A stretch of 50,520 nt of DNA from an uncultured Clostridiaceae bacterium. GTDB taxonomy: Bacteria > Bacillota > Clostridia > TANB77 > CAG-508. Made by a program: the position numbers and the translations under genes. Below the pieces are notes generated by a model. The model was not told the DNA's origin and searched no databases. It worked only from the letters and a program-made list of their open reading frames with translations. The DNA is taken from NCBI GenBank assembly GCA_958402495.1, contig CATXTS010000002.1, forward strand, positions 1-50,520. Reading direction: 5' to 3'. Below are positions 1 to 33,040 of this stretch, piece by piece. Numbering within the stretch: the first letter of the stretch is position 1; each line of letters opens with the position of its first letter.

Positions 1-1018
1 CATAATTACTTTTTAGAATATCTAAGAACACAGAAGCAATAGAAGGGTCAAATTGACTACCAGAGCATCTTTCTATTTCAGAAATAACCGTTTCTATTGG
101 AAGGGCATCACGATAGGTTCTTTTAGAAGTCATGGCATCAAAAGTATCCGCTACAGCAGCAATCCTTGCTAAATAGGGAATATCTTCTCCTTTTAATTTA
201 CTAGGATAGCCATTACCATCATATCTTTCATGATGATGCATAACAATAGGAATAATATCTTTAAAAATAGTGGCATTATTTAAAATGTGTGTACCAATTG
301 CTGGGTGATTTTTAATTTGAGAATATTCATCATCAGAAAGTTTAGCCTCTTTTAATAAAATACTATCTGGAATACCAATTTTACCAATATCATGAAATAG
401 ACCACCAATACGTAGTGTTTTTATATCTTCTTCATTTAGACCTAGATATTCGCCAATTAGAACAGAATAAGCAGAAACACGGTCTGAATGTCCTCTGGTA
501 TATGGGTCTTTTGCTTCAACAGTATAACGTAGAGTTTCAATACTTTCTAAATAAGCCTTCTCTAACTTTTCATAAGTATCAGAAAGTTCTTCATTAATTC
601 GTTTGATTTCATTCATTTGTTCAATAGATTTTATACCAGATTCCACCAATAGTAATAGTTGGTCAAATTTATCACTCTTCTCACAATAACCTTGAATATC
701 TAATCTACGAATAGTTTCTAATGGTGGAGCTAAATCTTTATGACCAGTTAATAATAAAATATATAAATCTTTATTAAATTTTCTAATTTCTTCAACAACA
801 TCATCACCATGAATAGGAGACATCATAAAGTCTAGAATCATCATATCAAAATGTTCATTTTTGACACGTTCAATTGCCTCTGTAGGGTCAGTCACACCAG
901 TAAAATCATAACCAGAACGCTTTAAAAAGATAGATAATGAGTCGATAATACCAATTTCATCATCAACAGCTATGATTTTATATCCATTAGAAGTTACACT
1001 TTGAATCCCTTTTCTCAT
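1..1018 (-). CDS. Response regulator with REC receiver and HD-GYP phosphohydrolase domain (probable c-di-GMP phosphodiesterase). The C-terminus runs off the window.
   Basis: Absent from the ORF track because the window edge truncates it. Hand translation of the minus strand from ATG 1018-1016 gives MRKGIQSVTSNGYKIIAVDDE...MMILDFMMSP (receiver). Further on it gives KTLRIGGLFHDIGKIGIPDS (HD motif, nt ~361-420) and MHHHERYDGNGYP (GYP motif, nt ~205-240). An RBS GGTAGGTGA lies upstream. Confidence 0.85.
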   Translation of the reverse strand, partial: MRKGIQSVTSNGYKIIAVDDEIGIIDSLSIFLKRSGYDFTGVTDPTEAIERVKNEHFDMMILDFMMSPIHGDDVVEEIRKFNKDLYILLLTGHKDLAPPLETIRRLDIQGYCEKSDKFDQLLLLVESGIKSIEQMNEIKRINEELSDTYEKLEKAYLESIETLRYTVEAKDPYTRGHSDRVSAYSVLIGEYLGLNEEDIKTLRIGGLFHDIGKIGIPDSILLKEAKLSDDEYSQIKNHPAIGTHILNNATIFKDIIPIVMHHHERYDGNGYPSKLKGEDIPYLARIAAVADTFDAMTSKRTYRDALPIETVISEIERCSGSQFDPSIASVFLDILKSNY

Positions 1019-1043
1019 AATTTCACCTACCTAAATTACTAGT

Positions 1044-1071
1044 ATTATACTATATTAACAGAAAAAAGCAA
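1044..1071 (-). promoter_or_regulatory. Putative sigma-A promoter for the HD-GYP regulator
   Basis: Minus strand reads TTGCTT (1071-1066), 16 nt, TATAAT (1049-1044). It sits about 25 nt upstream of the ATG, downstream of the kinase hairpin. Confidence 0.4.
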
Positions 1072-1111
1072 GGTATAAAGTAAAAAAATGTCGAAACGTA
1101 AGAAAAGGCAT

Positions 1112-1156
1112 ACAAATAGAAATAAAAATACTTACCTATAAAAAAGTAAGTATTTT
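1112..1156 (-). terminator. Hairpin plus U-rich tail after the histidine kinase
   Basis: An 11-bp stem (1125-1135 pairs with 1146-1156) with a 10-nt loop. On the minus strand it is followed by TTATTTCTATTT. Confidence 0.45.
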
Positions 1157-1164
1157 ATAAAAAG

Positions 1165-3183
1165 TTATAAAGGTAAAATAATATGGAAGGAAGTGCCTAC
1201 GCCTTTTTGTGTTTCAAAAGTAATATTACCATTAAAGTGAGCACGAATATTTGAATAAGACATAAATAAACCAAGACCAGTACCATTTTTCCCTTTTGTT
1301 GTAATCATTTCTTTAAATAATTTCTTTTCTACTTCATCAGGAAGACCACCTGCATAATCACGAATAGTAATGATGATATTTGTATTCTCTTGTACAATGA
1401 TTAAATCTATATTTTGATCTTTTTGACCATTATAAGCTTGAATACTATTAGAAATCATATTATTAATAACTTGTACTAAACTATTAACATTTCCTTTTAA
1501 AGTAACATCTGGTTCTATTTGTAAATCCATTACTAAATTAACTAATGCGTTTTTTAGCTCATGTCTCATTAATATATCTATTCGTTTTACAAGTTCTTCA
1601 ATTGAAAAGGTATAGGCTTGCTCATCAGATAAAGTAACAGCCTGTCCTTTAACAGCAGTAATAACATCAGACATATATTCCGTGTAAGATTTTATCTTTT
1701 CTATCCAAGTAGACATATCTTTTGCAATTTCATGATGGTCTTGATTAGTTACCTCTGCATCTCCTATAGAAGCATTATATTCTTTAACCAAATCATTTAA
1801 TCCCTCTACTGCACCTGCAATAGACATGATAGGTGTCTTTAAGTTATGGGCAATACCACCAATTAATTGTCCTAAAGAAGCAAGACGCTCCTTTTCCATT
1901 AATTTATCCTGGTTATCTTGGATTTGATTTAAATGTTGTGTATTTAAATCCTGAAGCTGATTAAGCAAACTAACTAAATCACCAATTTCATCATTAGAAG
2001 TAACAGGAAGTTTAGGATTACTTGTATCTGTATCACTTTGAATAATATGTAATAGTTCATCATTTACATTATTAATATCTTTATTTAAAGAAGTTACTAC
2101 ATAAATAATAATTATTAAATTAAAGATAAATAATAATAAAGAAATAATTAAAAATAATAAAAAGCTAGAAAAAGAGGCTATCTCGTAATAAATTCCTACG
2201 GTATAAACTTCACCATTATATTCTATTTTTTCAATAACTGCTTGTGAGTCCACGGTATAAGCTTCATATACCATATTACCATGAGAGGCAGATAAATCAT
2301 GCATATATTTTACAAAAAAGTGACTTAACTCTTGACCATTACTAGTTTGAATAGAACCATCTGGATTTTCTATAAAACAAAAAACCATAGAATCTTCAAT
2401 ATAGTAAGGAGAAAGAAGAGTATCCATTTCTTTAATAGTTGGATTAGAAGATATATTGGTAATTTCCGTATGTAAAGAAGTATAGTAATAATTTTTTAGT
2501 AGAGAACCTTTCTCAAGAGTTAAACGATAGTACCCCACTAAAGATAAAATTAAAGCAACTACTAGTACACCAGGAAACAGTTGAAATATTAATTTGTATT
2601 TCAAAGAAAATGGTTTAGTCTCTTCTTTACTAATATATCTAGAAGTATATTTTAAAAGCGGATACAATGTATTTTTAGAAACAATTAAAAACAAAGAGGC
2701 TATCAATGTAGAGAAACTAAAAATAATGGTTCCCATTTTAAATAATAAAATAGCAGGATGGCTACCAGTTAACATTAAGATAGCCAATACAATGATGGTT
2801 GGAAAAATCTCCATAGAAATATATAATTTATAAGAAAAGGTTAAGGCTTTTTTTCTTACCATTAAAATAGTTCCTAAATCTGAACTTTTATGTTTCCACC
2901 ATTTATCTATTTTTCTTAAAGCAATTTTTAAATATGTTACAAAAAATACACTAATTCCTAGAACTACTAACAAAAATTGATAAACATAATATAAAATGGA
3001 TACTTCTTTATCAAATGTTGTATTAATAGTATCAGGCGGATAATTTAATAATATAGGTATAACGTTGTATAATAAAAAGGAAAAAGCAAAAAATATAATT
3101 AGAAAATAAATCACTAATTGATTAGAGATAGATAATTTTCTAAAATTATTTTGTAAAGTTTTAAACAAATTTGATTTCACCAC
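1165..3183 (-). CDS. Multi-pass membrane sensor histidine kinase (HisKA + HATPase_c)
   Basis: 672-aa ORF with many N-terminal hydrophobic segments. H-box GGIAHNLKTPIMSI and ATP-lid GKNGTGLGLFMS are present. The GTG start directly abuts the NRPS stop codon. Confidence 0.9.
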   Translation of the reverse strand: MVKSNLFKTLQNNFRKLSISNQLVIYFLIIFFAFSFLLYNVIPILLNYPPDTINTTFDKEVSILYYVYQFLLVVLGISVFFVTYLKIALRKIDKWWKHKSSDLGTILMVRKKALTFSYKLYISMEIFPTIIVLAILMLTGSHPAILLFKMGTIIFSFSTLIASLFLIVSKNTLYPLLKYTSRYISKEETKPFSLKYKLIFQLFPGVLVVALILSLVGYYRLTLEKGSLLKNYYYTSLHTEITNISSNPTIKEMDTLLSPYYIEDSMVFCFIENPDGSIQTSNGQELSHFFVKYMHDLSASHGNMVYEAYTVDSQAVIEKIEYNGEVYTVGIYYEIASFSSFLLFLIISLLLFIFNLIIIIYVVTSLNKDINNVNDELLHIIQSDTDTSNPKLPVTSNDEIGDLVSLLNQLQDLNTQHLNQIQDNQDKLMEKERLASLGQLIGGIAHNLKTPIMSIAGAVEGLNDLVKEYNASIGDAEVTNQDHHEIAKDMSTWIEKIKSYTEYMSDVITAVKGQAVTLSDEQAYTFSIEELVKRIDILMRHELKNALVNLVMDLQIEPDVTLKGNVNSLVQVINNMISNSIQAYNGQKDQNIDLIIVQENTNIIITIRDYAGGLPDEVEKKLFKEMITTKGKNGTGLGLFMSYSNIRAHFNGNITFETQKGVGTSFHIILPL

Positions 3184-6100
3184 CTATCCTTTATCACCAA
3201 AAAAATGAACTAATTTCATATAATTAAATAATTTTTCAACATAATCTATATTTAAATCAGGCCAATGAAAACCTAATTTATTCAAATAATGACAAGTCAA
3301 GGTATTATCTGTTTGAATAATGTGATTATAAATAAAATCATCATTTTTGGTAAAGTCATTAATAATTCCCTTGATTTTTGATTGTTGAGAAACATTGGCA
3401 GAAAATTCTTTTACAGTTTCTATAAAATCTTCCGGTGATAATATAGAAATATTATAATGTAATTGCTTCATATAATCAAGTAAAGTAGAAACTTTTATGA
3501 AGTGAGGATTATATATATGAAAAATTTTATTATAGCAAGGGGTTGACCATATAATTTTACAGATAGCCTGTGCAGAAAAATCTACTGGAGAAAATTCTAA
3601 AGTATTTTCTAAAAGAGAGGAGGAAATACAACCCATTTCTAAAATAGATTTTAATCTTAGGTAAATAGAATTTTCTTCTATATTTTTTTGAAAAACACCA
3701 TCAGAATACCTACCTGTTAAGTCACCAATTCTATAGATAGAAGCTTGCAATCCATCAGACATAGCTGAAAGTACTAAAGATTCAGCTATAAGTTTACTTT
3801 TTGAATAAACATTATCATCAAAAGATTGACCAGAAAAAAAAGTATGTTCATCAAAAATAGAATTGGAATTATTTTGTTCAATTAAATAATTACCGGAGAT
3901 AGTCATTGTTGAAATATAATGTAACGGTAAAGAAAATTGATTACAAAGTTGTATTATATTTTTAGTACCTTGAATATTCGTTCTTTGAAAATCTGAATAA
4001 TTTCCATAATGCTTTACATTGGCAGCACAGTGAATGACGGCATTTACATTATTCTTAATAAAAGATAAATTAGTGGAATCTAAACCAATCATTTCCTCGT
4101 TAATATCTGATTCAATACAAATAACATATTTTTGAATAAGCGTATCGTAACGATTAGAAAAATAGAAATGAAATTTATCAAGTAGCCTTTCTGTAATAGA
4201 AATATTTTCTTTTTTTCTAACAGCACAATAAATTTTTTTTATGAGCAAAGGATGGTCTAATAGTTGCGCTAGAATATGAATCCCTAAGAAACCAGTTGCG
4301 CCAGTAATTAAAAAAGTTAAAGATTCAGTAGTAGGAAAAGCCTCGTAATTTCTAGAAAGATTCTTAGCAAAAGTATCCAAAGAAAGAAACTTTTCAATAT
4401 CTAAATTAGTTTGCAATTCGTTTTCAGATAATAGATGGTCATATAATTGTCTAACAGTAGGATATTTATAAAAGTCATAAACCTTTAAATTTAAATTATA
4501 TTGGAAAAGATCTGTTAGAATATTGATAATAGCTAAAGAATCAGCTCCAAAATCAAAAATGTTATTATCGATTCCGAAGTTAGAAAGATTTAATTTCTTT
4601 TTTATAGAAGAAATAATTTCCTCTTCTATAAGATTACGTGGTAATGTATAAATCTCATCTACAGTCATAGGTGTAATTTGATAATAACCTAAAGCTTTTC
4701 TATCTATTTTCCCATTAGGAGTATAAGGCAAACTATCTAATATAGTATAGGTGCTAGGAACCATATAATTTGGCAAGCAAGAAGTTAAATATTGTCTAAG
4801 TTCCTTTAGATTAATAGTCATAGTACAAGAAAGGAAAGCATTTAAGCAAACGGTATAATTATCAGACTTTATAATAACTGCTGATTTTATGTTGGCTGTA
4901 GGACAAAATCGATTAATCGTATTTTCAATTTCATCTAATTCAATGCGGAGACCATGGATTTTTACTTGATTATCACTTCTACCTTTACAAATTATGGAAC
5001 CATTTGATAACCAAAAGCCAATATCGCCAGTTTTATATAAAGTAGAGTTTGGTAAATAAGGATTTATTAGATAACGTTCTTTTGTAATGGAATCTTTATA
5101 TAAATAACCTCTTCCAACACCATCACCTGCAATATAAATTTCACCATATGTTTTAGGAGGTAATAAAGAAAGATTCTTATCTAGTATATAAATTTGTGTA
5201 TTATCAATTGGTTCTCCAATAGTAATCGTATCTAAATTTGATACATCTTTTACAGTAGAAAAAATAGTTGTCTCAGAGGGACCATATCCATTATAAACTA
5301 TACAATCAGGTGCAATAGATTTAATTTTGTCCACTAAAGATTTTGGAAGTTGCTCACCAGCTAGCATTATATACTTTAAGTTTTGAAAACCGTTAATACT
5401 TTGATTCTCTAAGTGAAAACGCATAATAGAAGGTGTAGATTGTATAATTTCAATTTGATTTTCTAAAAGAAGCCTTTCTAATTTTATAGTAATTTTTTGT
5501 TGAGATTCATTTGTTAAAAACAATTTAAGTCCACTACACAAAGAAACAATCGTCTCAAATATAAAAATATCAAAGGATACTGTAGTAATAGAAATGATAG
5601 AGTGTGGTATACCATCTTTTAAATATGCAATTTTATTTTTCATAGAAGAGACAAAATTAGACAAATTTTTATGAGTTAGCATAACACCCTTTGGATTACC
5701 TGTAGAACCAGAGGTATAAATGATATAAGAAAGGTCATCTGGCTGTGAAATAGAAGAAAGATTATCTATATTTACATTTGTATAAATAAAACGATTTTTT
5801 AAATCAGCAAAAATAATCTCTCCATTAAAACAAAAGTGATGGATTTTTTCTTCTAAATCTTCTTGTGACAATAATATTTTACTTTTACTATCGGTAAGCA
5901 TGTAACGAATTCTATCATCTGGGTATTCTGGATCAATAGGAATATAAGATGCTCCAGATTTCAAAACAGCTAAAATGCAAATAATCATTTCAAAACTACG
6001 ATGTGTCATAATAGCAATAATATCATTATTCTTAATATTTTTATTTCTTAAATAATAAGCTAAATGATTAGCCTTATCATTTAATTGCTCATATGTAAAT

Positions 6101-7542
6101 TGTTGATTTTCAAAAACAAGTGCAATGTGATTAGGGTTTTTAGCCACTTGTTCCTCAAAAAAATCTACAATCGTCTTATGTTTATCATAAACCAGTTGTG
6201 TATCGTTAAAATCATATAATAATTTTTGCTTTTCTTCAGGTGTAACAATCTCTATATCTTGAATGCATAAATTATCAGAAGAAAGAATTTGCTCAATCAT
6301 ATATAGAATTCTAGCATGTATATCTGTAATATCCTCTTTAGAATATTTAGATAAACGATAATCATAAGCAATATTTAAAGAACCCTCATCATTCATATCA
6401 AATAAATGAATTTGCATAGAATCTGCTACAAAATCATTAAAAGTCCATCTGACTTCGTAATCTACGCCAGCGGTATTCTTATTAGTTCTCGTATTTTGAT
6501 AAGAAATTAAAATATCATATAAGTTGGGTTGAGAGGGATTTTTAGCACGAATATGCTCTAGAATATTTTGATATGGATATTTCTGATGGCGAAACATAGC
6601 CAAGGCATCCATAGCAATTGTTTTAATAAAGTCAGAAAAAGAAGATTCGTTATGAATACAAAAACGAAAAGGAACGGTACTAATAAACATACCAGGCGTA
6701 TTTTTTTCTGTATAAGTGGTTCTATTTAAAATAGGAGTGCCTAAAACAAAATCGTCTAATTGAGAAACACGACCAATATAAATAGCATATACAGCCATAA
6801 AAAAATTAAAAATAGATACTTTATTTTGGGCGCAAAAAGTCTGTATACGTTCTAACTGTGAACATGGCATTACAAATAATTCTCTGCTGGCTATACAAGA
6901 ATCATTTGTGGATGCGTGTACAGAGGGAATCACACCTATTTCTGGTATAGTTTCAAACATAGTATCCCAATAGGCTTTATCTTTTTCAAATCTTTCACTA
7001 GAAAGATATTCTTTTTCAGCATCAATATAAGAAAGATAAGAGGTAGCTGCAACAGGATTGTCTTTTTTTTGTAATAGAGCCGTATAAATATTGATAACTT
7101 TGCTAGCAAGAAGACCAGCTGTACAAGCGTCAGAAATTAAATGATGGGCAGTAATAACAAAGCCACCATGACCATTTGAAAATTGAAACATTTTGAAACA
7201 AAATAATAAATTATCTATTAAAGAAATAGGGGCACTTACCATGTCCTTTTCTAATTTTTTTAAATCTTCATCTGTGTTTAAAGACACAATACTAATAGGA
7301 AAATTAGAAACAGAGGAAATGTATTGTTGTACATTTCCGGCATTATCAAATGTAAGTTTTAAACGAAAACTATCGTTATCTTTCACAAAGGTTTCGATAG
7401 CTTTTTTTAGTAAATCAAAATCAACTACTTCATGTAGCAAAACTGTACCACAAATGTGATTGATAGCGGTATCTTTATAAAATTGTTCCGTAAGCCAAAT
7501 AGATTGTTGAGGATTGGTTAAATCATAATATTTTCTTTCCAT
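3184..7542 (-). CDS. Single-module non-ribosomal peptide synthetase, domain order C-A-T-R (terminal thioester reductase)
   Basis: 1452-aa ORF. C domain: HHLISDA (aa ~133). A domain: YTSGSTGNPKG (aa ~610), NGYGPSETT, YKTGD, GRSDNQVKIHGLRIEL, PNGKIDRKAL. T domain: FGADSLA (aa ~997). R domain: ITGATGFLG (aa ~1077) and YSKSK. Confidence 0.95.
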   Translation of the reverse strand: MERKYYDLTNPQQSIWLTEQFYKDTAINHICGTVLLHEVVDFDLLKKAIETFVKDNDSFRLKLTFDNAGNVQQYISSVSNFPISIVSLNTDEDLKKLEKDMVSAPISLIDNLLFCFKMFQFSNGHGGFVITAHHLISDACTAGLLASKVINIYTALLQKKDNPVAATSYLSYIDAEKEYLSSERFEKDKAYWDTMFETIPEIGVIPSVHASTNDSCIASRELFVMPCSQLERIQTFCAQNKVSIFNFFMAVYAIYIGRVSQLDDFVLGTPILNRTTYTEKNTPGMFISTVPFRFCIHNESSFSDFIKTIAMDALAMFRHQKYPYQNILEHIRAKNPSQPNLYDILISYQNTRTNKNTAGVDYEVRWTFNDFVADSMQIHLFDMNDEGSLNIAYDYRLSKYSKEDITDIHARILYMIEQILSSDNLCIQDIEIVTPEEKQKLLYDFNDTQLVYDKHKTIVDFFEEQVAKNPNHIALVFENQQFTYEQLNDKANHLAYYLRNKNIKNNDIIAIMTHRSFEMIICILAVLKSGASYIPIDPEYPDDRIRYMLTDSKSKILLSQEDLEEKIHHFCFNGEIIFADLKNRFIYTNVNIDNLSSISQPDDLSYIIYTSGSTGNPKGVMLTHKNLSNFVSSMKNKIAYLKDGIPHSIISITTVSFDIFIFETIVSLCSGLKLFLTNESQQKITIKLERLLLENQIEIIQSTPSIMRFHLENQSINGFQNLKYIMLAGEQLPKSLVDKIKSIAPDCIVYNGYGPSETTIFSTVKDVSNLDTITIGEPIDNTQIYILDKNLSLLPPKTYGEIYIAGDGVGRGYLYKDSITKERYLINPYLPNSTLYKTGDIGFWLSNGSIICKGRSDNQVKIHGLRIELDEIENTINRFCPTANIKSAVIIKSDNYTVCLNAFLSCTMTINLKELRQYLTSCLPNYMVPSTYTILDSLPYTPNGKIDRKALGYYQITPMTVDEIYTLPRNLIEEEIISSIKKKLNLSNFGIDNNIFDFGADSLAIINILTDLFQYNLNLKVYDFYKYPTVRQLYDHLLSENELQTNLDIEKFLSLDTFAKNLSRNYEAFPTTESLTFLITGATGFLGIHILAQLLDHPLLIKKIYCAVRKKENISITERLLDKFHFYFSNRYDTLIQKYVICIESDINEEMIGLDSTNLSFIKNNVNAVIHCAANVKHYGNYSDFQRTNIQGTKNIIQLCNQFSLPLHYISTMTISGNYLIEQNNSNSIFDEHTFFSGQSFDDNVYSKSKLIAESLVLSAMSDGLQASIYRIGDLTGRYSDGVFQKNIEENSIYLRLKSILEMGCISSSLLENTLEFSPVDFSAQAICKIIWSTPCYNKIFHIYNPHFIKVSTLLDYMKQLHYNISILSPEDFIETVKEFSANVSQQSKIKGIINDFTKNDDFIYNHIIQTDNTLTCHYLNKLGFHWPDLNIDYVEKLFNYMKLVHFFGDKG

Positions 7543-7784
7543 AAATATGTTCTCCTATGTTATCCATTTTTATAAAAAGATTATATAACAAAACACCAAA
7601 AAAGCAACAATTTGTTTTATGATTTGTGAAAAAAATAAATAAAAAAACAAAGAATAATAAAAAACGACAAAATACAATCAATTAAGAAAAAAGTAAATAT
7701 CTAAAAAAATAAAGGCAGAATGATTAAAACAAAAATAATTGGAAAAAATATGAATAGTAAAAAAGAAAGGGAGGAACTGACAAA

Positions 7785-8942
7785 GTGTCGGGAAAAAATA
7801 TGTATCGATATAAAAAAGCGAGCAAACAAAAATTAAAAAATATAATGACCATATTAGCCATTGTGGTATTAACTTCTATTTTAAGTATTCTATTATATAA
7901 GCTATATGAAGGAATTGATGTACATACATATAACCAACAGACAAGTCAATTAAATAGTCAAGCAATTAAAATAACACAAACCGTAGAAAATGTAAAAGAA
8001 CAAAGCAAACAAATAGCAGATGTAGTAGAAGAAGTAACCTCTTGTGTCGTAGGTATTTCCAAAATAAAAAATGCCGGAAATACGATATTTTTAAGAGACG
8101 GGACTACACAGCTAGGACTAGGAACGGGTATGATTGTATCTGAAAATGGTTATATTTTATCTAATGAACATGTGACAGGTGCCAAATATAGTAATTGCTA
8201 TGTAACTTTAGAAAATGGAAGAACATATACAGCCAGTGTAGTGTGGTCTGATTCTAATATTGATTTATCTATCTGCAAAATCAATATTAAAAATTTACCA
8301 TATGCAAAACTAGGCGATTCTGACAATGTAAGAGTAGGAGAGATAGTATATGCTATAGGCAATCCAATTGGTTTTGAATTTCAAAGAACAGTAACTTCTG
8401 GCATTATTAGTGCTACAAGTAGAACCGTAAGAATTGATGAAAATGAGAAAAGTACCTATATGGAAGATTTAATTCAAACAGATGCTACCATCAACCCAGG
8501 AAATAGTGGAGGACCATTAATAAATCCGGATGGTAATGTAATAGGAATTACCTCTGTAAAAATTACTTCCGCAGAAGGGATAGGATTTGCTGTACCAATT
8601 AATGTAGTAAAACCAATTATCGAAAGATATTTAAAAGAAGGGAAATTTGAAGAGGCTAGTTTAGGTATTTTTGCTTATGATAAAGAAGTAATTCCATATC
8701 TAGATGAAAAAATTGAATTTAATAAAGGTATCTATGTAGCACAAATTTCTTTAGATTCACCAGCAGCTAAGACAAACTTAAAAGTAGGAGACGTCATTAC
8801 TAAAATTGACAATTTAGAATTAACTAAAATGTGTGATTTAAGATGTTATATTTATACAAAATCACCAGGAGAAGAAGTGACACTTACCGTTTATAAAAAC
8901 GGAAAAGAACAAACCATAAAAGTTACTTTAGGAATGAAATAA
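7785..8942 (+). CDS. HtrA/DegP-type trypsin-like serine protease with N-terminal TM anchor and C-terminal PDZ domain
   Basis: 385 aa. Contains an SNEHV (His) region, the catalytic-Ser motif GNSGGPL, and a PDZ-like C-terminus (GIYVAQISLDSPAAKTNLKVGDVI). RBS GGGAGG precedes the GTG; an alternative ATG lies at 7800. Confidence 0.88.
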   Translation: MSGKNMYRYKKASKQKLKNIMTILAIVVLTSILSILLYKLYEGIDVHTYNQQTSQLNSQAIKITQTVENVKEQSKQIADVVEEVTSCVVGISKIKNAGNTIFLRDGTTQLGLGTGMIVSENGYILSNEHVTGAKYSNCYVTLENGRTYTASVVWSDSNIDLSICKINIKNLPYAKLGDSDNVRVGEIVYAIGNPIGFEFQRTVTSGIISATSRTVRIDENEKSTYMEDLIQTDATINPGNSGGPLINPDGNVIGITSVKITSAEGIGFAVPINVVKPIIERYLKEGKFEEASLGIFAYDKEVIPYLDEKIEFNKGIYVAQISLDSPAAKTNLKVGDVITKIDNLELTKMCDLRCYIYTKSPGEEVTLTVYKNGKEQTIKVTLGMK

Positions 8943-14045: not shown

Positions 14046-14122
14046 GTGCCTGTAGTTTAGCTGGATAGAATGGCAGGCTACGAACTTGCAGATCGGGGGT
14101 TCGAATCCCTCCAGGCACACCA
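14046..14122 (+). tRNA. Island-borne complete tRNA-Arg (anticodon ACG)
   Basis: GTGCCTG TA GTTT AGCTGGATA GAAT G GCAGG CTACGAA CTTGC AGATC GGGGG TTCGAAT CCCTC CAGGCAC A CCA. The stems differ from the split host copy by compensatory changes, while the T-arm is identical. Confidence 0.9.
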
Positions 14123-14130
14123 TTTGGTAA

Positions 14131-14172
14131 AACATAGTTCTCAAGCTAGTTTGAGAACTATGTTCTTTTTTT
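14131..14172 (+). terminator. Intrinsic terminator after the island tRNA-Arg, overlapping the integrase 3' end
   Basis: Perfect 14-bp stem: AACATAGTTCTCAA (14131-14144) pairs with TTGAGAACTATGTT (14151-14164). CTTTTTTT follows. Confidence 0.75.
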
Positions 14173-15562
14173 GAGGCTTTTTCTTTAAAAAGTATCGCTT
14201 TACTTGTGTAGACTTACTTTCAGCATTTTTTGTTTTCCCCTGAAATTCCTCAAAATTTACTCTTTCAAACTCCTTTTTCTTTCGTTCTTCTGATACATGA
14301 ATATAGTAAAAATCTGTTGTTTCAAATTCGGCATGTCCCATTAATTCTCGTAAAACCTCTTTATCCATACCTTTTTCACTCATTAAAGTTGCAAAAGAAT
14401 GTCTAAAACCATAAATTGTCATGTGTTCTAATTTATATTTCTTTATAAATTCTGTAATCTTTTTAGTTAATCTTTCTGGAACATAAGGTGTTCCAATAGT
14501 ATTTAAAAACACATATTGCTCATTATCCCATTCCTCACCATATTGTAGATTATTCATTTTTTCTCTTTTTAAGTTAAGTAGCATTTCTTTTAATCTTGGA
14601 GTCATTGGAATATTACGATAACTTTCTGTGGTTTTTAAATCTCCATCGGTCATTATATGTCCTGTAATATTCATTTCATCATCATATAATGTAATGTCTT
14701 TATAAGCATTTTCTACTCTGATTTTGTTTTGATTAAAGTGTACCGATTTCCATTTCAAACCACAACCTTCTTCTGGTCGCATACCTGTTTGAAGTAAGGT
14801 AGCAAAAAGTAGTGCAAATGGTCTTTTATCTTTTTCACATACATCAAGCCATACTCTTTGTCTATCTTCTGTTAAATAACATACCTTTGCTACCTTTGCT
14901 CTTTTCTTCTTTTGAAATTTTAAATCAAAATTAGGTACTTCTTTTATTAATCCTTTTTTATCTTTAGCATAAGCTAAGACTGCTCTAATAAGCAAGAATA
15001 AATCTTTTGCTAGTCTAGGTGTTTGTTGCCTTTTCTCATTTATATAGTTTTCTACCATTTCTTTACTGATTTCGCTAACATGATAATTTTTAAAATCAAT
15101 CATTACATGATTTTTAATTGTGTTTATGTAAGTTTCAACAGTTTTTAAACTAATCGTTTTATTTGTGCTAGGATTTACTTGTTTCTTTTTCCAATTAAGC
15201 CATTCCTTTGCTATATTTGGAAACAAAGTATAATCATCTGCTAACAATTCTATTTTCCTTTTTTCTTTTTCTTCATTAAATTCAGTAAACTTATTTAATT
15301 CTGATGAACACTCTTCTGTAAATACTTTGACATTAGGATTTGTACTATTTTTTTGAATATCAAAATATATATCAGTAATTAGTTCTCCTAATCTTTTTCT
15401 TGCTTCTTTTTCTGTTCTTGCTGTCCTTGATAATCTTGGATTTCTATCAACTCCTTCCATTATTGAATTAAGGGCTAACGTTACTCTTGCCTCATAGCTA
15501 TTTCCTTTTTTCCTTATTGTAACTGTTCCTTTTGGTGCTCTTTGTCTATTTATCTTTTTCAT
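14141..15562 (-). CDS. int: Tyrosine recombinase / phage-type integrase
   Basis: C-terminal catalytic region: TGMRPEE (Arg), GFRHSFATL (His-x-x-Arg), GHAEFETTDFYYIH (His/Tyr). Start is set at the ATG preceded by GGAAGGAG; the track ORF extends 5 codons further to a TTG. Confidence 0.9.
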   Translation of the reverse strand: MKKINRQRAPKGTVTIRKKGNSYEARVTLALNSIMEGVDRNPRLSRTARTEKEARKRLGELITDIYFDIQKNSTNPNVKVFTEECSSELNKFTEFNEEKEKRKIELLADDYTLFPNIAKEWLNWKKKQVNPSTNKTISLKTVETYINTIKNHVMIDFKNYHVSEISKEMVENYINEKRQQTPRLAKDLFLLIRAVLAYAKDKKGLIKEVPNFDLKFQKKKRAKVAKVCYLTEDRQRVWLDVCEKDKRPFALLFATLLQTGMRPEEGCGLKWKSVHFNQNKIRVENAYKDITLYDDEMNITGHIMTDGDLKTTESYRNIPMTPRLKEMLLNLKREKMNNLQYGEEWDNEQYVFLNTIGTPYVPERLTKKITEFIKKYKLEHMTIYGFRHSFATLMSEKGMDKEVLRELMGHAEFETTDFYYIHVSEERKKKEFERVNFEEFQGKTKNAESKSTQVKRYFLKKKPQKKNIVLKLA

Positions 15563-15666
15563 GATAACTCCTTCCAAAATATAAATAGTTTAAAAGGGCT
15601 CGAAACTTAATATCAAGATATATCTTATCACGTTTAAAACAAGAAATCAGCCCTTTTTTCTAGTTA

Positions 15667-15876
15667 TTAATATTCATAGTCATCATACTGTCCAGAATTC
15701 TCTGCAAACCATTTTGGTAGCATTTCTTTATTAACAATTATTTTTCTTTTAAATTTAACTGCTGGAAATCCATCTAATTTAACTAATTCCAACATTAAAT
15801 TTCTTCCGATTCCTAACATTTTTCTTGCTTCATCTATTGATATTCCTATTCTTTCATCTTCTTCATTATTTGACAT
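15667..15876 (-). CDS. xis: Excisionase-type helix-turn-helix DNA-binding protein
   Basis: 69 aa, adjacent to int. Typical Xis/MerR-like HTH: ISIDEARKMLGIGRNLMLELVKLDGFPAVKFKRKIIV. Start moved to the second ATG, 7 nt after AGGAGGT. Confidence 0.75.
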   Translation of the reverse strand: MSNNEEDERIGISIDEARKMLGIGRNLMLELVKLDGFPAVKFKRKIIVNKEMLPKWFAENSGQYDDYEY

Positions 15877-15950
15877 ACACATTACCTCCTTTGTAAAAAT
15901 AGTAAGAGTAAAATTTATCCTTCTACTAGATAAGTTCCAAAAGCACCTTT

Positions 15951-16140
15951 AAAATGTAACGATTTTTGAAAAATTTTTTAAAATTTTCTATAAAATTCAC
16001 TCTTCAATATGTAAATGCCAGGCAGATATCAAAAAGGTATAATTTTGAAAAGATTTTTTTAATTTTTCTCTCCTATAAGATAAATGCCACCATTTTATAA
16101 AAAAGTGGTAAATTTCAAAAATTTTTTTAAACTTTTTGAA
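15951..16140. repeat. Three degenerate tandem units of about 70-80 bp between xis and the cargo operon
   Basis: ATTTTTGAAAAATTTTTTAAAATTTTCT (15962-15989), AATTTTGAAAAGATTTTTTTAATTTTTCT (16041-16069), AATTTCAAAAATTTTTTTAAACTTTTTG (16111-16138). TAAATGCCA occurs at 16012 and 16081. Confidence 0.5.
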
Positions 16141-16209
16141 GAATTATTAAATTAAAGTAAAATACTAGAATTAGATTTGGCTATTTCTATATATTTTGTA
16201 AAGAAAATA

Positions 16210-16218
16210 TGTTATAAT
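16210..16218 (+). promoter_or_regulatory. Extended -10 promoter element (TGtTATAAT) for the deaminase operon
   Basis: TGTTATAAT lies 29 nt upstream of ATG 16247. No good -35 element is present. Confidence 0.4.
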
Positions 16219-16246
16219 TCAATCAAATTTATAGGAGGTAACCAAG

Positions 16247-17092
16247 ATGACTGATGAACAATATATTGATATTGCAATAGATATATCTTCAAAGGCTAAA
16301 TATCCTTATGGTGCTATTGTAGTAAAAAATGGGAAGATTATTGGTAGAAGTGATGATAAGACTTTAATGGAAACAAGTATGTATTCTCATGCAGAACTAG
16401 AGGCAATAGAAAGCGCATCAAAGAATAAAAATCTTTATGGAGATTTAAAAGGTGCAACAATATATGTATCTTGTGAACCTTGTATGATGTGTATGGGAGC
16501 AATACTATACGAAAAGTTTTCAAAAATCGTTTATGCAGCAACACTACAAGATAGTAATGATAATTATTGTCCAGAGATGATTACTAATATAGATGAGTTA
16601 ACAAAATACGGAAATACTAAAATTGAAATAATAAAAGAATTACATAGAGAAAAGGCAGTAGAAATTTTGAAACAACACAAAGATAAAATTAAAAATAGAA
16701 TTTTAATTACAGGTGCTGTATTATCATCAAATGAGGCTTCAACTCAAACATATAATAAAATTACATCAATAATAGATAAGCATAAATTTTTAATTTCTAG
16801 CCCAATAGATACTATGAATTTTAAAGGTAATGACTATGAAAGATATGAGAGAGCAATGGATTTGTTAAGAGATACCAAAAAAATTATTGCAGAAATGAGT
16901 ACTACATCAACAGGTCAAGGTATGGAATTACAAGAAGCGACTAATCTACATATTCCAATATTGGTTATTGCTAAAAATGGTAGTAAAATATCGGGGCTAG
17001 TTAAGGGATGTAAAAATATAAAGGATATCATATTTTATGATAACATAGAAAGTATACAAGAAAAAATTAAAACATTTATTGAGGAGGAATAA
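16247..17092 (+). CDS. Fusion of a CMP/dCMP-type zinc deaminase domain with a nucleoside 2-deoxyribosyltransferase / DNPH1(Rcl)-like domain
   Basis: N-terminal HAELEAI ... CEPCMMCMGA (zinc-binding H-A-E / C-x-x-C). C-terminal ILITGAVLSS ... STGQGMELQEA matches the DNPH1/NDT catalytic-Glu block (S-x-G-x-G-x-E-L-x-x-A). Confidence 0.75.
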   Translation: MTDEQYIDIAIDISSKAKYPYGAIVVKNGKIIGRSDDKTLMETSMYSHAELEAIESASKNKNLYGDLKGATIYVSCEPCMMCMGAILYEKFSKIVYAATLQDSNDNYCPEMITNIDELTKYGNTKIEIIKELHREKAVEILKQHKDKIKNRILITGAVLSSNEASTQTYNKITSIIDKHKFLISSPIDTMNFKGNDYERYERAMDLLRDTKKIIAEMSTTSTGQGMELQEATNLHIPILVIAKNGSKISGLVKGCKNIKDIIFYDNIESIQEKIKTFIEEE

Positions 17093-17093
17093 T

Positions 17094-17645
17094 ATGAGTA
17101 ATTATTTGTTAATACATGGAAGTTTTGGAAGTCCTTTTGTAAATTGGTTTCCATATTTAAGAAATGAAATAGAAAAAAGAGAATTAGTAGTCTATACTCT
17201 GGATTTTCCCACAGGAGTAGGTTATCAAAATTATAGTAATTGGGAAAAAGTATTAGAAAGTTATGTAAGTGCTGGAATAGTAAATGAAAATACTATTATT
17301 TTTGCTCATTCTATTGCTCCAATATTTGTTTGCCATTTTTTAGTTAGTCACAATATTAAAGTAAAAAGATTAGTATTTGTATGTGGATTTAATAATTATT
17401 TAGGAATTAACGAAGAATATGACAATGTAAATGAAACCATGTATTTTGATAATTTAGAAGATGTAAAAAAATTAGCACAAGAGATTATTTGTTTTTATTC
17501 CAAAAATGATCCCTATGTGAAATATGAAGTTGAAAAAGAATTTGCAGACACAATAGCAACAAAGCAAATAGTAATTGATGATGGAGGACACTTGAATTCT
17601 GAAAGTGGATATACAGAATTTAAAGAATTATTAGAATTCATATAA
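17094..17645 (+). CDS. Alpha/beta serine hydrolase, YdeN/RBBP9-like
   Basis: LLIHGSFGSP near the N-terminus and the nucleophile elbow FAHSIAP; about 183 aa. Start set at the ATG after GAGGAGG, 1 nt after the upstream stop. Confidence 0.7.
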   Translation: MSNYLLIHGSFGSPFVNWFPYLRNEIEKRELVVYTLDFPTGVGYQNYSNWEKVLESYVSAGIVNENTIIFAHSIAPIFVCHFLVSHNIKVKRLVFVCGFNNYLGINEEYDNVNETMYFDNLEDVKKLAQEIICFYSKNDPYVKYEVEKEFADTIATKQIVIDDGGHLNSESGYTEFKELLEFI

Positions 17646-17661
17646 AGATATTGGAGGAAAT

Positions 17662-18228
17662 ATGAAAATTTTAATTTTAAGTTTCAGTAGTAATCAAGTA
17701 AATGAAGATAGTTTTATTCCTAATAAAATTGGTTTAACTTTTTCTTGTGTAGAAGAATGTGAAAAAGAATTAAAAAAATTAGGAAAAGAAGTAGAACATA
17801 TCTGTATAAATAAAAAGAATATAAAGAAATGCCTAGCTTGTGGAAAAAGAGGTTGGGGAATTTGTTTAGAGAAACATAAATGTATTCAAAAAGATGATTT
17901 TAATGAGATTTATGAATATATGAATAATTTTAATGCCTACATATTTATTACTCCAGTTTATTTTTGGGAAATGAGCGAATCTGCAAAAACATTCTTTGAT
18001 AGACTAAAAAGATGTGATGCTTTTAACGATAATTCTAAAATCAAAGGAAAGAAAGTTATTTGTATCGCTTGTGCAGGTGGAAGTGGAAATGGAACAGAAG
18101 AAACATTAAAATCTTTTGATATATTAAACCACTTCTTAAAGACAGAAATAGTTGGAAGAATACCAGTTACTAAAGTTACTTTTGAAAGTCAAAAAGAAAA
18201 AATTAGAAAAACGGTAAATTCTTTATAA
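17662..18228 (+). CDS. Flavodoxin-fold (NADPH-dependent FMN reductase / iron-sulfur flavoprotein-like) protein
   Basis: 188 aa. Contains CLACGKRGWGIC, then FITPVYFWEMSESAKTFFDR, which is typical of the FMN_red fold. RBS GGAGG. Confidence 0.6.
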   Translation: MKILILSFSSNQVNEDSFIPNKIGLTFSCVEECEKELKKLGKEVEHICINKKNIKKCLACGKRGWGICLEKHKCIQKDDFNEIYEYMNNFNAYIFITPVYFWEMSESAKTFFDRLKRCDAFNDNSKIKGKKVICIACAGGSGNGTEETLKSFDILNHFLKTEIVGRIPVTKVTFESQKEKIRKTVNSL

Positions 18229-18326
18229 TGTAGTAATTAAAAAATTGGCAATTACATATACTTCATTAAAACTATGTATATGATTGCCAATATAAACTAT
18301 AATATACTTTCTATTTTTACTTATAA

Positions 18327-18635
18327 TTAACACATTCTAATATCAAATTTATTGCGTCTGAAAATCCGTATTTTATAGAATTTTTCATTTTCATAAAATC
18401 CAATAATATTTATTTTGTCAATATAACTGTCTAAACTATTTCTGACACCTTCTAATTCTTCTTGTGTATGTGGCAAATCTTCTATTATGCAAAATAGCTT
18501 TTCATAACTATCATTATCCTTAGTTAAAGTTGCAATCCTTTCCTTGTCCTTTTCCGTTAAAGAATATAAATTCTCTTCTCTACATTCAAATAGTGTGTTT
18601 AAAACAGTTTCTTTTTTTACTTTTTCCTCTGACAT
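18327..18635 (-). CDS. Hypothetical protein (102 aa)
   Basis: ORF with a GGAGGTAG RBS 5 nt before ATG 18635. No motif recognised. Confidence 0.5.
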   Translation of the reverse strand: MSEEKVKKETVLNTLFECREENLYSLTEKDKERIATLTKDNDSYEKLFCIIEDLPHTQEELEGVRNSLDSYIDKINIIGFYENEKFYKIRIFRRNKFDIRMC

Positions 18636-18719
18636 ATTTACTACCTCCAATATTAATTTGATAGTAGTATAACGTGCTCAATTCAATTTGTCAGCCTATT
18701 TTTATGATTTTTTAAATAT

Positions 18720-25358: not shown

Positions 25359-25490
25359 AAGTTTTTCCCCCGAAGTGAAAAATATTTTCCCCTTATTTCC
25401 CCTTAAATGAGAAATTTTAATAAACTATTTTTATTTTTCTTAAATTTTTTTAATTCATTGTAAATACTTTACAAAAACTTGTAACTTAGT

Positions 25491-25559: not shown

Positions 25560-25611
<52 letters not shown>

Positions 25612-32651: not shown

Positions 32652-32964
32652 TAGATAAAAGAAAAGGTAACTATTTTTTAAATGGTTACTTTTTGTTTAT
32701 AATATAAAAAATTAATTTTTCATGAGTTTTTATATATAAAATAGTATATGCTTTTTGACTAACTTTTTATAAGTTCTTAAATACTATTAAATGTTGATTT
32801 TACAAGTGTTGGAATCATCTCTGTTTTATGAAGATGTTCATATATACTGTTATAAATTCTTATATTTTTATGTTTAAAAGTAGTAAAATCGTAGTAAACT
32901 TCTTACTTTAAATAAGTAATAATATTTTCGTGGCAAGTGGCAAAGCCACGATTGTCCACGAAAC

Positions 32965-33040
32965 TATAAGGATAGTATTACCCTTATAGTGTAGCACGTA
33001 GCATGTAGCAATTTTCATAAGATATGATATAATGTATGTA
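32965..33040 (+). promoter_or_regulatory. Repeated promoter/operator module P1 (upstream of the NUDIX gene)
   Basis: TATAAGG-ATAGTATTAC-CCTTATA palindrome, three GTAGCA heptads, then the extended -10 TGATATAAT. Near-identical to 33716-33784. Confidence 0.55.

Follow-up and report, generated by a model that had tools for sequence, protein, structure and literature searches.

A candidate two-step nucleotide-disposal enzyme: a mobile fusion of a zinc deaminase and a DNPH1-like domain from gut bacteria

Which reactions does a bacterium gain by carrying a zinc deaminase and a DNPH1-like domain in one polypeptide? The question is raised by a 281-amino-acid open reading frame (ORF; 16247..17092, plus strand, a stop-free frame) in a stretch of 50,520 nucleotides from an uncultured Clostridiaceae bacterium (contig CATXTS010000002.1, positions 1 to 50,520 of the forward strand; this whole stretch is called the window). 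A preliminary description had proposed that the ORF joins a CMP/dCMP-type deaminase to a domain resembling DNPH1 and the nucleoside 2'-deoxyribosyltransferases (NDT), and that the product may destroy deoxynucleotides needed by phages. The two-domain ORF was reproduced here, and the fusion is a member of a horizontally mobile, so far uncharacterised clade whose active site is unusual. As to its function, our favoured reading, which we hold at even chances, is that of a bifunctional enzyme for two-step nucleotide disposal ("house-cleaning"). The chain is divided as follows:

16247..16687, plus strand: deaminase domain (residues 1–147), a zinc deaminase of the cytidine deaminase (CDA) fold
16688..17092, plus strand: DNPH1-fold domain (C-domain; residues 148–281 and the stop codon), placed by profile, structure model and alignments

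Taken as a lone sequence, the C-domain gives weak signals (Pfam PF05014, E 0.019; Rcl, E 0.005). A Pfam scan of the whole protein leaves it unmatched at E ≤ 0.1, and its PF05014 score of 15.6 bits lies below the cut-off of 28.8; of the two Pfam domains expected earlier, only the deaminase one (dCMP_cyt_deam_1, 1.2e-17) came out. Because single-sequence signals are too weak, the fold was placed with profiles and structure. A profile of 43 C-domain relatives finds rat Rcl (2.2e-6) and human DNPH1 (3e-5 to 3e-4) in the Protein Data Bank (PDB). The block STGQGMELQEA (residues 221–231), in which a catalytic-Glu motif of the DNPH1 type had been recognised, indeed aligns without a gap to the SLGVGYELGRA block of the rat and human DNPH1 sequences (profile-to-PDB E 2.2e-6; hhalign probability 90%, E 1.5e-6). 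With the full-length model, the top 50 Foldseek matches were nearly all deaminases, and the C-domain was hence remodelled separately. Modelled alone (AlphaFold pLDDT 86, pTM 0.82), its top 44 PDB matches are all DNPH1/Rcl (human and rat, among them 8rpt, 8os9, 4fyh and 2klh; TM-score 0.66–0.79, probability 1.0), followed by an NDT and MilB. On this model, the C-domain has the DNPH1/NDT fold, as had been anticipated.

Relatives of the domain lead to the same superfamily. Since 38 of the 48 distant relatives tested from the C-domain profile match PF05014 (best 1.6e-15), the domain is, by transitive homology, apparently a divergent PF05014 member. The C-domain-only search gave 194 relatives, mostly nameless stand-alone proteins of ~130–145 aa with a Pfam match in almost none, and in the exhaustive profile search the distant relatives grade into canonical bacterial DNPH1-like sequences. 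The family is small, unnamed and mostly stand-alone. In BFVD, only distant phage NDT and CMP-hydrolase folds were found (≤20% identity).

Does this fold keep the catalytic equipment of DNPH1? The numbering of the human DNPH1 sequence used for hhalign reproduces the residues Y24, C26, I29, E55, H56, I76, D80, S98, E104 and S128 of the source from which the residue roles are taken (PMC10603095). A MAFFT alignment with canonical bacterial homologues agrees with the hhalign assignments; the equivalence of Tyr24 and L153 comes from the MAFFT alignment and a one-residue extension of the hhalign block. The DNPH1 residues and their counterparts are:

E104, nucleophile: E227 (16925–16927), kept, invariant
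S98, phosphate-binding: S221 (16907–16909), kept, invariant
S128', phosphate-binding: S249 (16991–16993), kept, invariant
I29, stacks on the base: V158, kept as a hydrophobic residue
Tyr24, catalytic triad and 2'-deoxy specificity: L153, replaced by an invariant Leu
Asp80, general acid: A203, replaced by an invariant Ala
Glu55-His56, water activation and leaving-group stabilisation: replaced by SP(L/I)DT with invariant D188-T189

Across 40 fusion proteins and 43 stand-alone or fused domains, the nucleophilic Glu and the two phosphate-binding Ser never vary, and L153 and A203 are invariant throughout the fusion family. The Glu55 and His56 columns fall on P186 and a gap, with D188 (16808–16810) and T189 nearby in the family-specific SP(L/I)DT motif. 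Besides the fold, the C-domain thus has in common with DNPH1/Rcl the S-x-G-x-G-x-E nucleophile, the two phosphate Ser and the base-stacking hydrophobic residue, but it differs at Tyr24, Asp80 and Glu55-His56, at 15–20% identity overall. Unlike DNPH1/Rcl, it is bacterial, mobile and fused to a deaminase. The alignments suggest a rewired variant rather than a DNPH1 orthologue.

The replaced residues bear directly on the substrate. Tyr24, Asp80 and Glu104 form the "core catalytic triad" of DNPH1 (PMC10603095), and it is the Tyr, which forms a hydrogen bond with the Glu, that confines NDT and DNPH1 to 2'-deoxy substrates (PMC10603095, PMC11204291). MilB accepts a ribonucleotide, has a Phe (Phe17) at the Tyr position and reads the amine groups of cytosine through a Glu (PMC10603095). 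The (hydroxymethyl-)CMP N-glycosidases of the MilB/BlsM/BcmB type are of the same superfamily and fold (4ohr, TMq 0.77; 4jen, a weak sequence match), and both MilB and the C-domain lack the Tyr and show an acidic residue near the base-recognition element. Nevertheless, MilB ranks below DNPH1 as a relative, by sequence and by structure, and it acts in nucleoside-antibiotic biosynthesis, a cluster of which is absent here. Since the phosphate clamp is kept, the substrate is probably a nucleoside 5'-monophosphate (NMP), though not necessarily a deoxynucleotide, because the Leu in place of the deoxy-specifying Tyr argues against specificity for deoxyribose. The destruction of deoxynucleotides suggested at first therefore does not follow from these residues (Tyr24 is Leu, Asp80 is Ala). 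For the missing acid/base, D188 would be the best candidate.

The deaminase domain is a CDA-superfamily member with both zinc motifs, HAELEAI (residues 48–54) and CEPCMMC (76–82), whose zinc and catalytic residues are H48 and E50 (16388–16396) and C76 and C79 (16472–16483). It scores 64.1 bits on PF00383 against a cut-off of 25, and MafB19-deam matches it at 2.9e-18. Its AlphaFold model (pLDDT 89.3) retrieves TadA, guanosine deaminase and guanine deaminase in Foldseek. A profile built from 26 domain sequences ranks the PDB entries likewise: Staphylococcus aureus TadA (2e-18), Bacillus subtilis guanine deaminase (9e-18) and plant guanosine deaminase (1.7e-17), versus 2.5e-8 to 8.6e-6 for dCMP deaminase structures. 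The "CMP/dCMP-type" label hence goes no further than the Pfam superfamily: the HAE and PCxxC motifs stood, and the closest enzymes are TadA and the guanine and guanosine deaminases, not DCTD/ComEB. No NCBIfam equivalog cut-off is reached (TadA 55.7 of 150 bits; ComEB 22.9 of 219; anti-phage dCTP deaminase NF041025 23.4 of 400), and the NCBIfam and PADLOC "dCTP deaminase" matches span only ~50–65 residues round the zinc motifs (residues 35–87 for PADLOC dCTPase).

Compared with GuaD (1wkq/1tiy), plant GSDA (7dbf) and TadA (2b3j, 7cph), the domain shares the CDA fold, the HAE and (S)CEPC motifs and a similar size (~146 aa, also as a stand-alone protein). It differs from them by D37, in a near-invariant GRSDD, where all three have a substrate-binding Asn after the second strand, by SMYSHAE in place of DPTAHAE, and by a family habit of fusing to NDT-like or NUDIX domains or of standing in tandem with an inactive E-to-Q copy. 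Because no equivalog cut-off is reached and the same genome has a separate TadA-like gene (contig C17), the domain appears to be a distinct, unnamed enzyme of the "nucleoside deaminase" type. Three identities were rejected: a dCMP deaminase (DCTD/ComEB/T4 Cd), given the ComEB score and PDB E-values far weaker than those of TadA, GuaD and GSDA; the housekeeping TadA, given its score, the Asn-to-Asp change and the separate TadA-like gene; and, as a main reading, a RibD-like riboflavin or pterin role, as PTPS and RibD_C recur nearby but RibD scores 34 of 156 bits and the neighbours are too variable.

The kinship with guanine deaminase raises the possibility of ordinary nucleotide catabolism or salvage, in which a canonical NMP such as GMP or CMP is split and its base deaminated (guanine to xanthine, cytosine to uracil), a mobile counterpart of PpnN/LOG-type nucleosidases plus GuaD that would be useful to a small-genome gut bacterium. 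Indeed, guanine and guanosine deaminases give the best alignments with the deaminase domain, D102 matches D114 of the B. subtilis enzyme within a common YAAxxxD pattern, the loss of the deoxy-specifying Tyr suits ribonucleotides (PMC10603095, PMC11204291), and the carrier genomes measure 1–1.9 Mb. However, of the 151 genomes sampled from its own family this one alone has the fusion, which is missing from all five sampled genomes of the same genus. Given its absence from these relatives, the fusion does not belong to core metabolism. It would be costly for a cell to run an NMP nucleosidase on canonical nucleotides without regulation, and the partners described below (MazG, NUDIX, Ogt, Tag) are damage-control rather than catabolic enzymes. 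We consider salvage unlikely.

The TadA match invites another explanation, which we find very improbable: a polynucleotide deaminase (tRNA, mRNA or DNA editing, or a toxin-like mutator) with a non-catalytic DNPH1-like module, or a counter-defence enzyme of the mobile element that degrades the signalling nucleotides of immune systems. The best single match is TadA, MafB19-deam scores as high as dCMP_cyt_deam_1, two DNPH1 catalytic residues are missing, and neighbouring genes include 2H-phosphoesterase and Apyc1-like metallo-β-lactamase (MBL) families, which are known as anti-defence folds. Yet the stand-alone C-domain (~137 aa) is widespread and keeps the same invariant Glu, Ser and Asp, which argues for catalysis. 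The TadA equivalog score and the genome's own TadA-like gene speak against editing, an immunity gene is absent, and close homologues are absent from phage and plasmid records.

What else is joined to these domains? Among 1.84 billion representatives, the best match to the C-domain profile is a MazG–C-domain fusion (P0242, 231 bits), which shares the SPLDT and STGQGMELQEA motifs with the window protein. Among more distant NDT-like domains, the fusion partners are thymidylate kinase (P0290), an ACT domain (P0373), a serine hydrolase of PF06821 (P0304) and a deaminase truly of the dCMP type (P0341). Because this last, independent fusion exists, the earlier idea of DCTD and DNPH1 activities in one chain is biologically sound, but it is not supported for the present protein, with its non-DCTD deaminase and its replaced Tyr and Asp. 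Stand-alone C-domain genes keep similar company: one overlaps a NUDIX gene upstream of pheST (L108), and another overlaps an FMN_red gene by 4 nt (L110/L111). The latter lies in a run of ~16 same-strand small genes (1–8624) that includes peptidase S51, an aldo-keto reductase, three FMN_red paralogues, GNAT, HAD, an NDT-like protein, DUF4186, ASCH, an AP endonuclease, MazG and a YfbR-like HD nucleotidase, and that looks like a "house-cleaning array". Similar reshuffled arrays surround the stand-alone deaminase in dozens of metagenome-assembled genomes (MAGs). The serine hydrolase and the FMN reductase that follow the fusion in the window also recur as C-domain partners independently of the deaminase.

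MazG and NUDIX enzymes turn (non-canonical) nucleoside triphosphates into NMPs (PMC10014863, PMC3855555). Because these enzymes yield NMPs and adjoin or are fused to the C-domain, the latter would act right after them in nucleotide clearing. The mammalian DCTPP1–DCTD–DNPH1 route follows the same logic, from pyrophosphatase to deaminase to N-glycosidase, and its three activities are fused pairwise in the window family (MazG with C-domain, NUDIX with deaminase, deaminase with C-domain). Unlike in that route, the window deaminase is not of the DCTD type and the glycosidase has no deoxy-specifying Tyr.

The chromosomal surroundings were surveyed by clustering all ORFs of 105 loci and by hand-annotating the recurrent clusters from PADLOC and Pfam matches; the counts refer to a 6-kb radius around 18 distinct fusion loci and 65 stand-alone-deaminase loci, which are not phylogenetically independent, and counts of defence genes are a lower bound. 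Small house-cleaning-type enzymes occur near 13 of the fusion loci and 45 of the stand-alone ones, PF06821 hydrolases near 5 and 21, and NUDIX near 3 and 20. Several fusions occupy fixed chromosomal sites: DUF5684, fusion, peptidase M19 (two of four loci) and serS in four species; an M20 peptidase followed by the fusion in another four, with GNAT next in two loci; and ogt, tag, NUDIX and then the fusion in one lineage. Other fusions sit in same-strand arrays of small enzymes or on islands like that of the window. Two further gene orders concern the PF06821 hydrolase: a stand-alone deaminase is immediately preceded by a DUF6602–PF06821 fusion of 562 aa (L046, 1812–3497), and, at four other loci, a ~355-aa GNAT protein whose C-terminal part looks PF06821-like by eye (cluster c64; only the GNAT half hit Pfam) comes directly downstream of such a deaminase.

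From the folds, the residues, the fusions, the neighbourhoods, the selection and the mobility, we infer the catalytic steps, their order and the substrate as follows. By analogy with DNPH1, the C-domain would bind an NMP through S221 and through S249 of the partner subunit, and E227 would act as the nucleophile that cleaves the N-glycosidic bond through a covalent intermediate, giving a free base and (deoxy)ribose 5-phosphate. The rewired active site may accept ribonucleotides, with D188 as acid/base or as reader of the exocyclic amine. The deaminase would strip the exocyclic amine from the same molecule, most likely from the released base and possibly from the nucleotide beforehand. Cleavage first is favoured because the nearest characterised deaminases use a free base or a nucleoside, and because the acidic D188 sits where the MilB Glu reads cytosine amines; this order is the weakest part of the proposal. 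The net result would be that an unwanted amino-bearing nucleotide (damaged, modified or an analogue) irreversibly leaves the pool. Where other genomes have a MazG or NUDIX partner, it may make the monophosphate from the triphosphate. The serine hydrolase and the FMN reductase of the window operon probably modify small molecules of the same class, for example by acyl removal or base reduction.

Several points weigh against nucleotide disposal. Two of the three residues of the DNPH1 catalytic triad are absent, so non-catalytic ligand binding or another chemistry (e.g. base exchange) is possible. Deaminases of tRNA, free bases and nucleosides match about equally, with the usual substrate Asn being Asp, which points to no single substrate. 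As for the neighbourhoods, 28–35% of the loci carry defence-type genes as well, the non-independence of the loci also limits the counts, and the neighbouring enzymes are mixed (short-chain dehydrogenases/reductases (SDR), GNAT, MBL, methyltransferases) and suit xenobiotic detoxification equally.

In a more specific joint reading, offered tentatively and with considerable doubt, the SP(L/I)DT clade would be an undescribed class of NMP N-glycosidases (ribo and deoxy), in which D188 replaces Tyr24, Asp80 and Glu55. It would form the centre of a mobile toolkit of small-genome gut Bacillota (MazG, NUDIX, deaminase, PF06821 hydrolase, FMN reductase) that may clear a specific damaged or modified base; in a bolder form, the toolkit on mobile elements may be directed against nucleotides that phages or immune systems produce. 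In human cancer therapy, DNPH1 serves as a drug target, and its catalytic triad is regarded as essential. A clade that keeps the nucleophile and the phosphate clamp without the Tyr and the Asp would reveal other ways in which this fold cleaves glycosidic bonds, and what sets the specificity for ribose or deoxyribose. The repeated pairwise fusions provide a sequence-based hypothesis for a bacterial pathway that degrades non-canonical nucleotides to base and sugar phosphate, whose members, as named by the fusions, are MazG/NUDIX, deaminase, N-glycosidase, PF06821 hydrolase and thymidylate kinase. For the PF06821 (RBBP9/YdeN) hydrolases, of which little is understood, they would be the first functional lead. 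Since such a pathway is mobile among gut bacteria, it bears on the microbial handling of modified nucleotides and nucleoside drugs.

In the window, the fusion gene is the first of three cargo genes, as had been described. The features of this operon are:

16198..16239, plus strand: probable promoter (TTGTAA and an extended −10, TGTTATAAT, at 16211–16219) and Shine-Dalgarno AGGAGG (16234–16239)
17094..17645, plus strand: gene 2, a PF06821 (YdeN/RBBP9-type) serine hydrolase (Pfam Ser_hydrolase 1.6e-17)
17662..18228, plus strand: gene 3, an NADPH-dependent FMN reductase-like flavoprotein (Pfam FMN_red 1e-18)
18244..18291, plus strand: hairpin, a probable terminator (minimum free energy −17.4 kcal/mol, z-score −3.7)

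The promoter was found by reading the letters and is not listed by the consensus scan, which in this AT-rich window gave 27 sites versus 26 expected and called no terminator. The hairpin separates the operon end from a convergent minus-strand gene (18327–18650); it lacks a U-run, and the terminator scan made no call there. The stop codon of gene 1 (TAA, 17090–17092) is followed by a single T and the ATG of gene 2 at 17094, whose Shine-Dalgarno GAGGAGG sits within the final Glu codons of gene 1; this ATG is a likelier start than the TTG at 17079 chosen by the ORF lister. With its 1-nt gap and the Shine-Dalgarno inside gene 1, the serine hydrolase gene is predicted to be translationally coupled to the fusion gene. 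The gaps within the operon (1 nt and 16 nt) are too small to hold attC sites, which is why an integron-like cassette array was rejected. An Rfam scan upstream of the operon found no riboswitch that might name a ligand. Although the 1-nt gap, the serine hydrolase and the flavoprotein all held up, the arrangement as a unit did not: because two related islands (L032, L027) lack the serine hydrolase and join the fusion straight to the FMN reductase, the operon is modular and not conserved in relatives.

The company of these enzymes may point to detoxification of, or resistance to, a nucleoside- or nucleotide-type antimetabolite (a competitor's antibiotic, a dietary compound or a drug analogue), in which the hydrolase cuts off an ester or aminoacyl group, the warhead is broken down by the glycosidase together with the deaminase, and the flavoprotein reduces it. 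All three operon enzyme classes are typical of xenobiotic transformation, the neighbours are rich in GNATs, MBL hydrolases, glyoxalase-fold proteins, SDRs and methyltransferases, and the stand-alone deaminase (146 aa) has spread horizontally in the manner of a resistance gene, at 81–93% identity across MAGs labelled as different classes. In addition, PMC7730578 lists a reference to the human PF06821 protein, RBBP9, as an esterase that activates valacyclovir, and MilB-type CMP glycosidases belong to nucleoside-antibiotic pathways (PMC10603095). Nonetheless, no transporter, regulator or biosynthetic cluster is linked to the fusion, the MazG, NUDIX and thymidylate-kinase fusions point to the cell's own nucleotide pool and not to an imported drug, and some lineages hold the gene at fixed chromosomal sites. 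Detoxification is, in our view, unlikely.

The operon is the first cargo of an island of ~11.5 kb, bounded by two 47-nt repeats of 85% identity, so that the island location proposed in the preliminary description was borne out. The whole tRNA-Arg gene spans 14046–14122, and the island features are:

14076..14122, plus strand: left 47-nt direct repeat, the 3' half of tRNA-Arg-ACG and one island end
14141..15577, minus strand: tyrosine integrase (Pfam Phage_integrase 4.8e-25)
15667..15882, minus strand: HTH_17 excisionase-like gene, divergent from the operon (Pfam HTH_17 3.9e-6)
25565..25611, plus strand: right 47-nt repeat of the tRNA-Arg 3' half, the other island end

Downstream of the operon, Pfam and PADLOC recognise AbiEii/AbiEi, a PDC-M48-like cassette and an AbiL-like ATPase. 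These genes are the starting point for a reading as anti-phage defence, in which the pool of canonical or phage-modified deoxynucleotides is depleted during infection, and other elements add to them. At L062, L064, L066 and L077, the stand-alone deaminase comes right after Gabija (GajA and a split GajB), together with PDC-S02 where the flank is present; at L070 and L080, it follows an ABC-3C system, and a MobA/VirD2 relaxase lies upstream of both; elsewhere, the genes that precede it are of the KAP NTPase or Schlafen-like kind. Therefore, deaminase-led arrays and defence systems share one cargo hotspot of mobilisable elements, and any cargo in such a variable hotspot is expected to co-locate with defence genes. 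Within 6 kb, a recognised gene of the defence type was counted at 5 of the 18 fusion loci and 23 of the 65 stand-alone loci, and thus not at the majority of them. As regards mobile or defence islands, then, the earlier expectation was met in part: some loci are islands, but several are stable chromosomal sites.

The protein itself offers little to a defence role. With the anti-phage dCTP deaminases (NF041025; PADLOC dCTPase; AvcD type) it has a zinc-dependent CDA-fold core in common, but the match is confined to the zinc motifs (23 of 400 bits; ~50 residues in PADLOC). Unlike them, it is about half the size and has no N-terminal kinase-like domain, and a sensor or regulatory domain and an antitoxin are absent as well. 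The deoxy-specifying Tyr is also lost. The anti-phage role put forward at first, whose evidence comes from the neighbours, is in our opinion quite improbable; if true, this would be the smallest nucleotide-depleting defence enzyme known, and a sensor-less one, which the evidence does not favour.

How did the fusion of the favoured disposal reading spread? It is a sporadic accessory gene rather than the widespread chromosomal housekeeping gene of known role that would have spoken against the first proposal: with one genome per species, 14 of ~185,000 species genomes carry it, all of them uncultured gut MAGs labelled Bacilli, Clostridia or Mollicutes. Full-length homologues form ~86 clusters at 90% identity, none of them named, and neither the fusion nor the clade turned up in literature searches. 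Among phage and plasmid records, matches are confined to the deaminase domain (<45% identity) and none spans 80% or more of the fusion; in PHROGs the C-domain, the serine hydrolase and the flavoprotein are all unmatched. The deaminase domain is far commoner in other architectures, including a fusion to an N-terminal NUDIX (321 aa). Tandem deaminase–deaminase proteins of ~300 aa were also seen (P0088, P0089, P0090, P0102), in which the first copy has HAQ, the catalytic Glu being lost, and the second is intact, an architecture that recalls the ADAT2/ADAT3 pseudo-heterodimer in one chain.

Both domains are under purifying selection (dN/dS against ten homologues of 0.05–0.24 for the deaminase half and 0.14–0.27 for the C-domain). 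In the deaminase-domain tree, the deepest branches are all fusions, and the stand-alone forms make up a shallow crown with a few scattered fusions, including that of the window; the well-supported branches require at least three changes between the fused and stand-alone states. The tree suggests an old but unstable fusion with several gains or losses. When the window is compared with a related island that has the stand-alone form, DNA similarity extends ~37 nt beyond the stand-alone stop, into the C-domain sequence of the window. A split version, with a stand-alone deaminase beside a stand-alone C-domain gene, was found at none of the 65 stand-alone-deaminase loci; two genomes (G148 and G048) hold both halves on different contigs.

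Some observations concern relatives of the island. At L007, a tRNA-Arg copy (1278–1357, 89% identical) lies directly upstream of an 88%-identical fusion (1482–2327), with no integrase or excisionase gene between them, and this locus may be a decayed or differently organised relative. On the related island of L032 (6001–7411), the fusion is truncated (227–251 aa), the serine hydrolase is deleted and the FMN reductase comes directly next; island cargo therefore decays or is reshuffled. The same integrase–excisionase pair precedes a stand-alone deaminase copy in L045. The NUDIX–deaminase fusion (321 aa) of L013 (8001–8966) belongs to conjugative-element cargo with a TraG-like coupling protein upstream, and adjoins a phosphoribosyltransferase-like gene, GNAT, HAD, an ATP-grasp enzyme, a 2-hydroxyacid dehydrogenase and GATase, a set that resembles a pathway for a small nucleoside-like metabolite.

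Finally, a 50-nt element that starts with TAAATGCCA and ends in an A/T run occurs twice in the window, 69 nt apart (16012–16061 and 16081–16130), both copies falling in the intergenic region between the integrase/excisionase genes and the operon; a weaker third copy (70% identity) lies at 25404–25453, near the right island end. These elements could be recombinase or excisionase binding sites, or operators. Unrelated to the fusion, an Rfam ssNA-helicase RNA (RF03070) scores 49.8 bits, above the gathering threshold, at 32962–33010 on the plus strand of the window.

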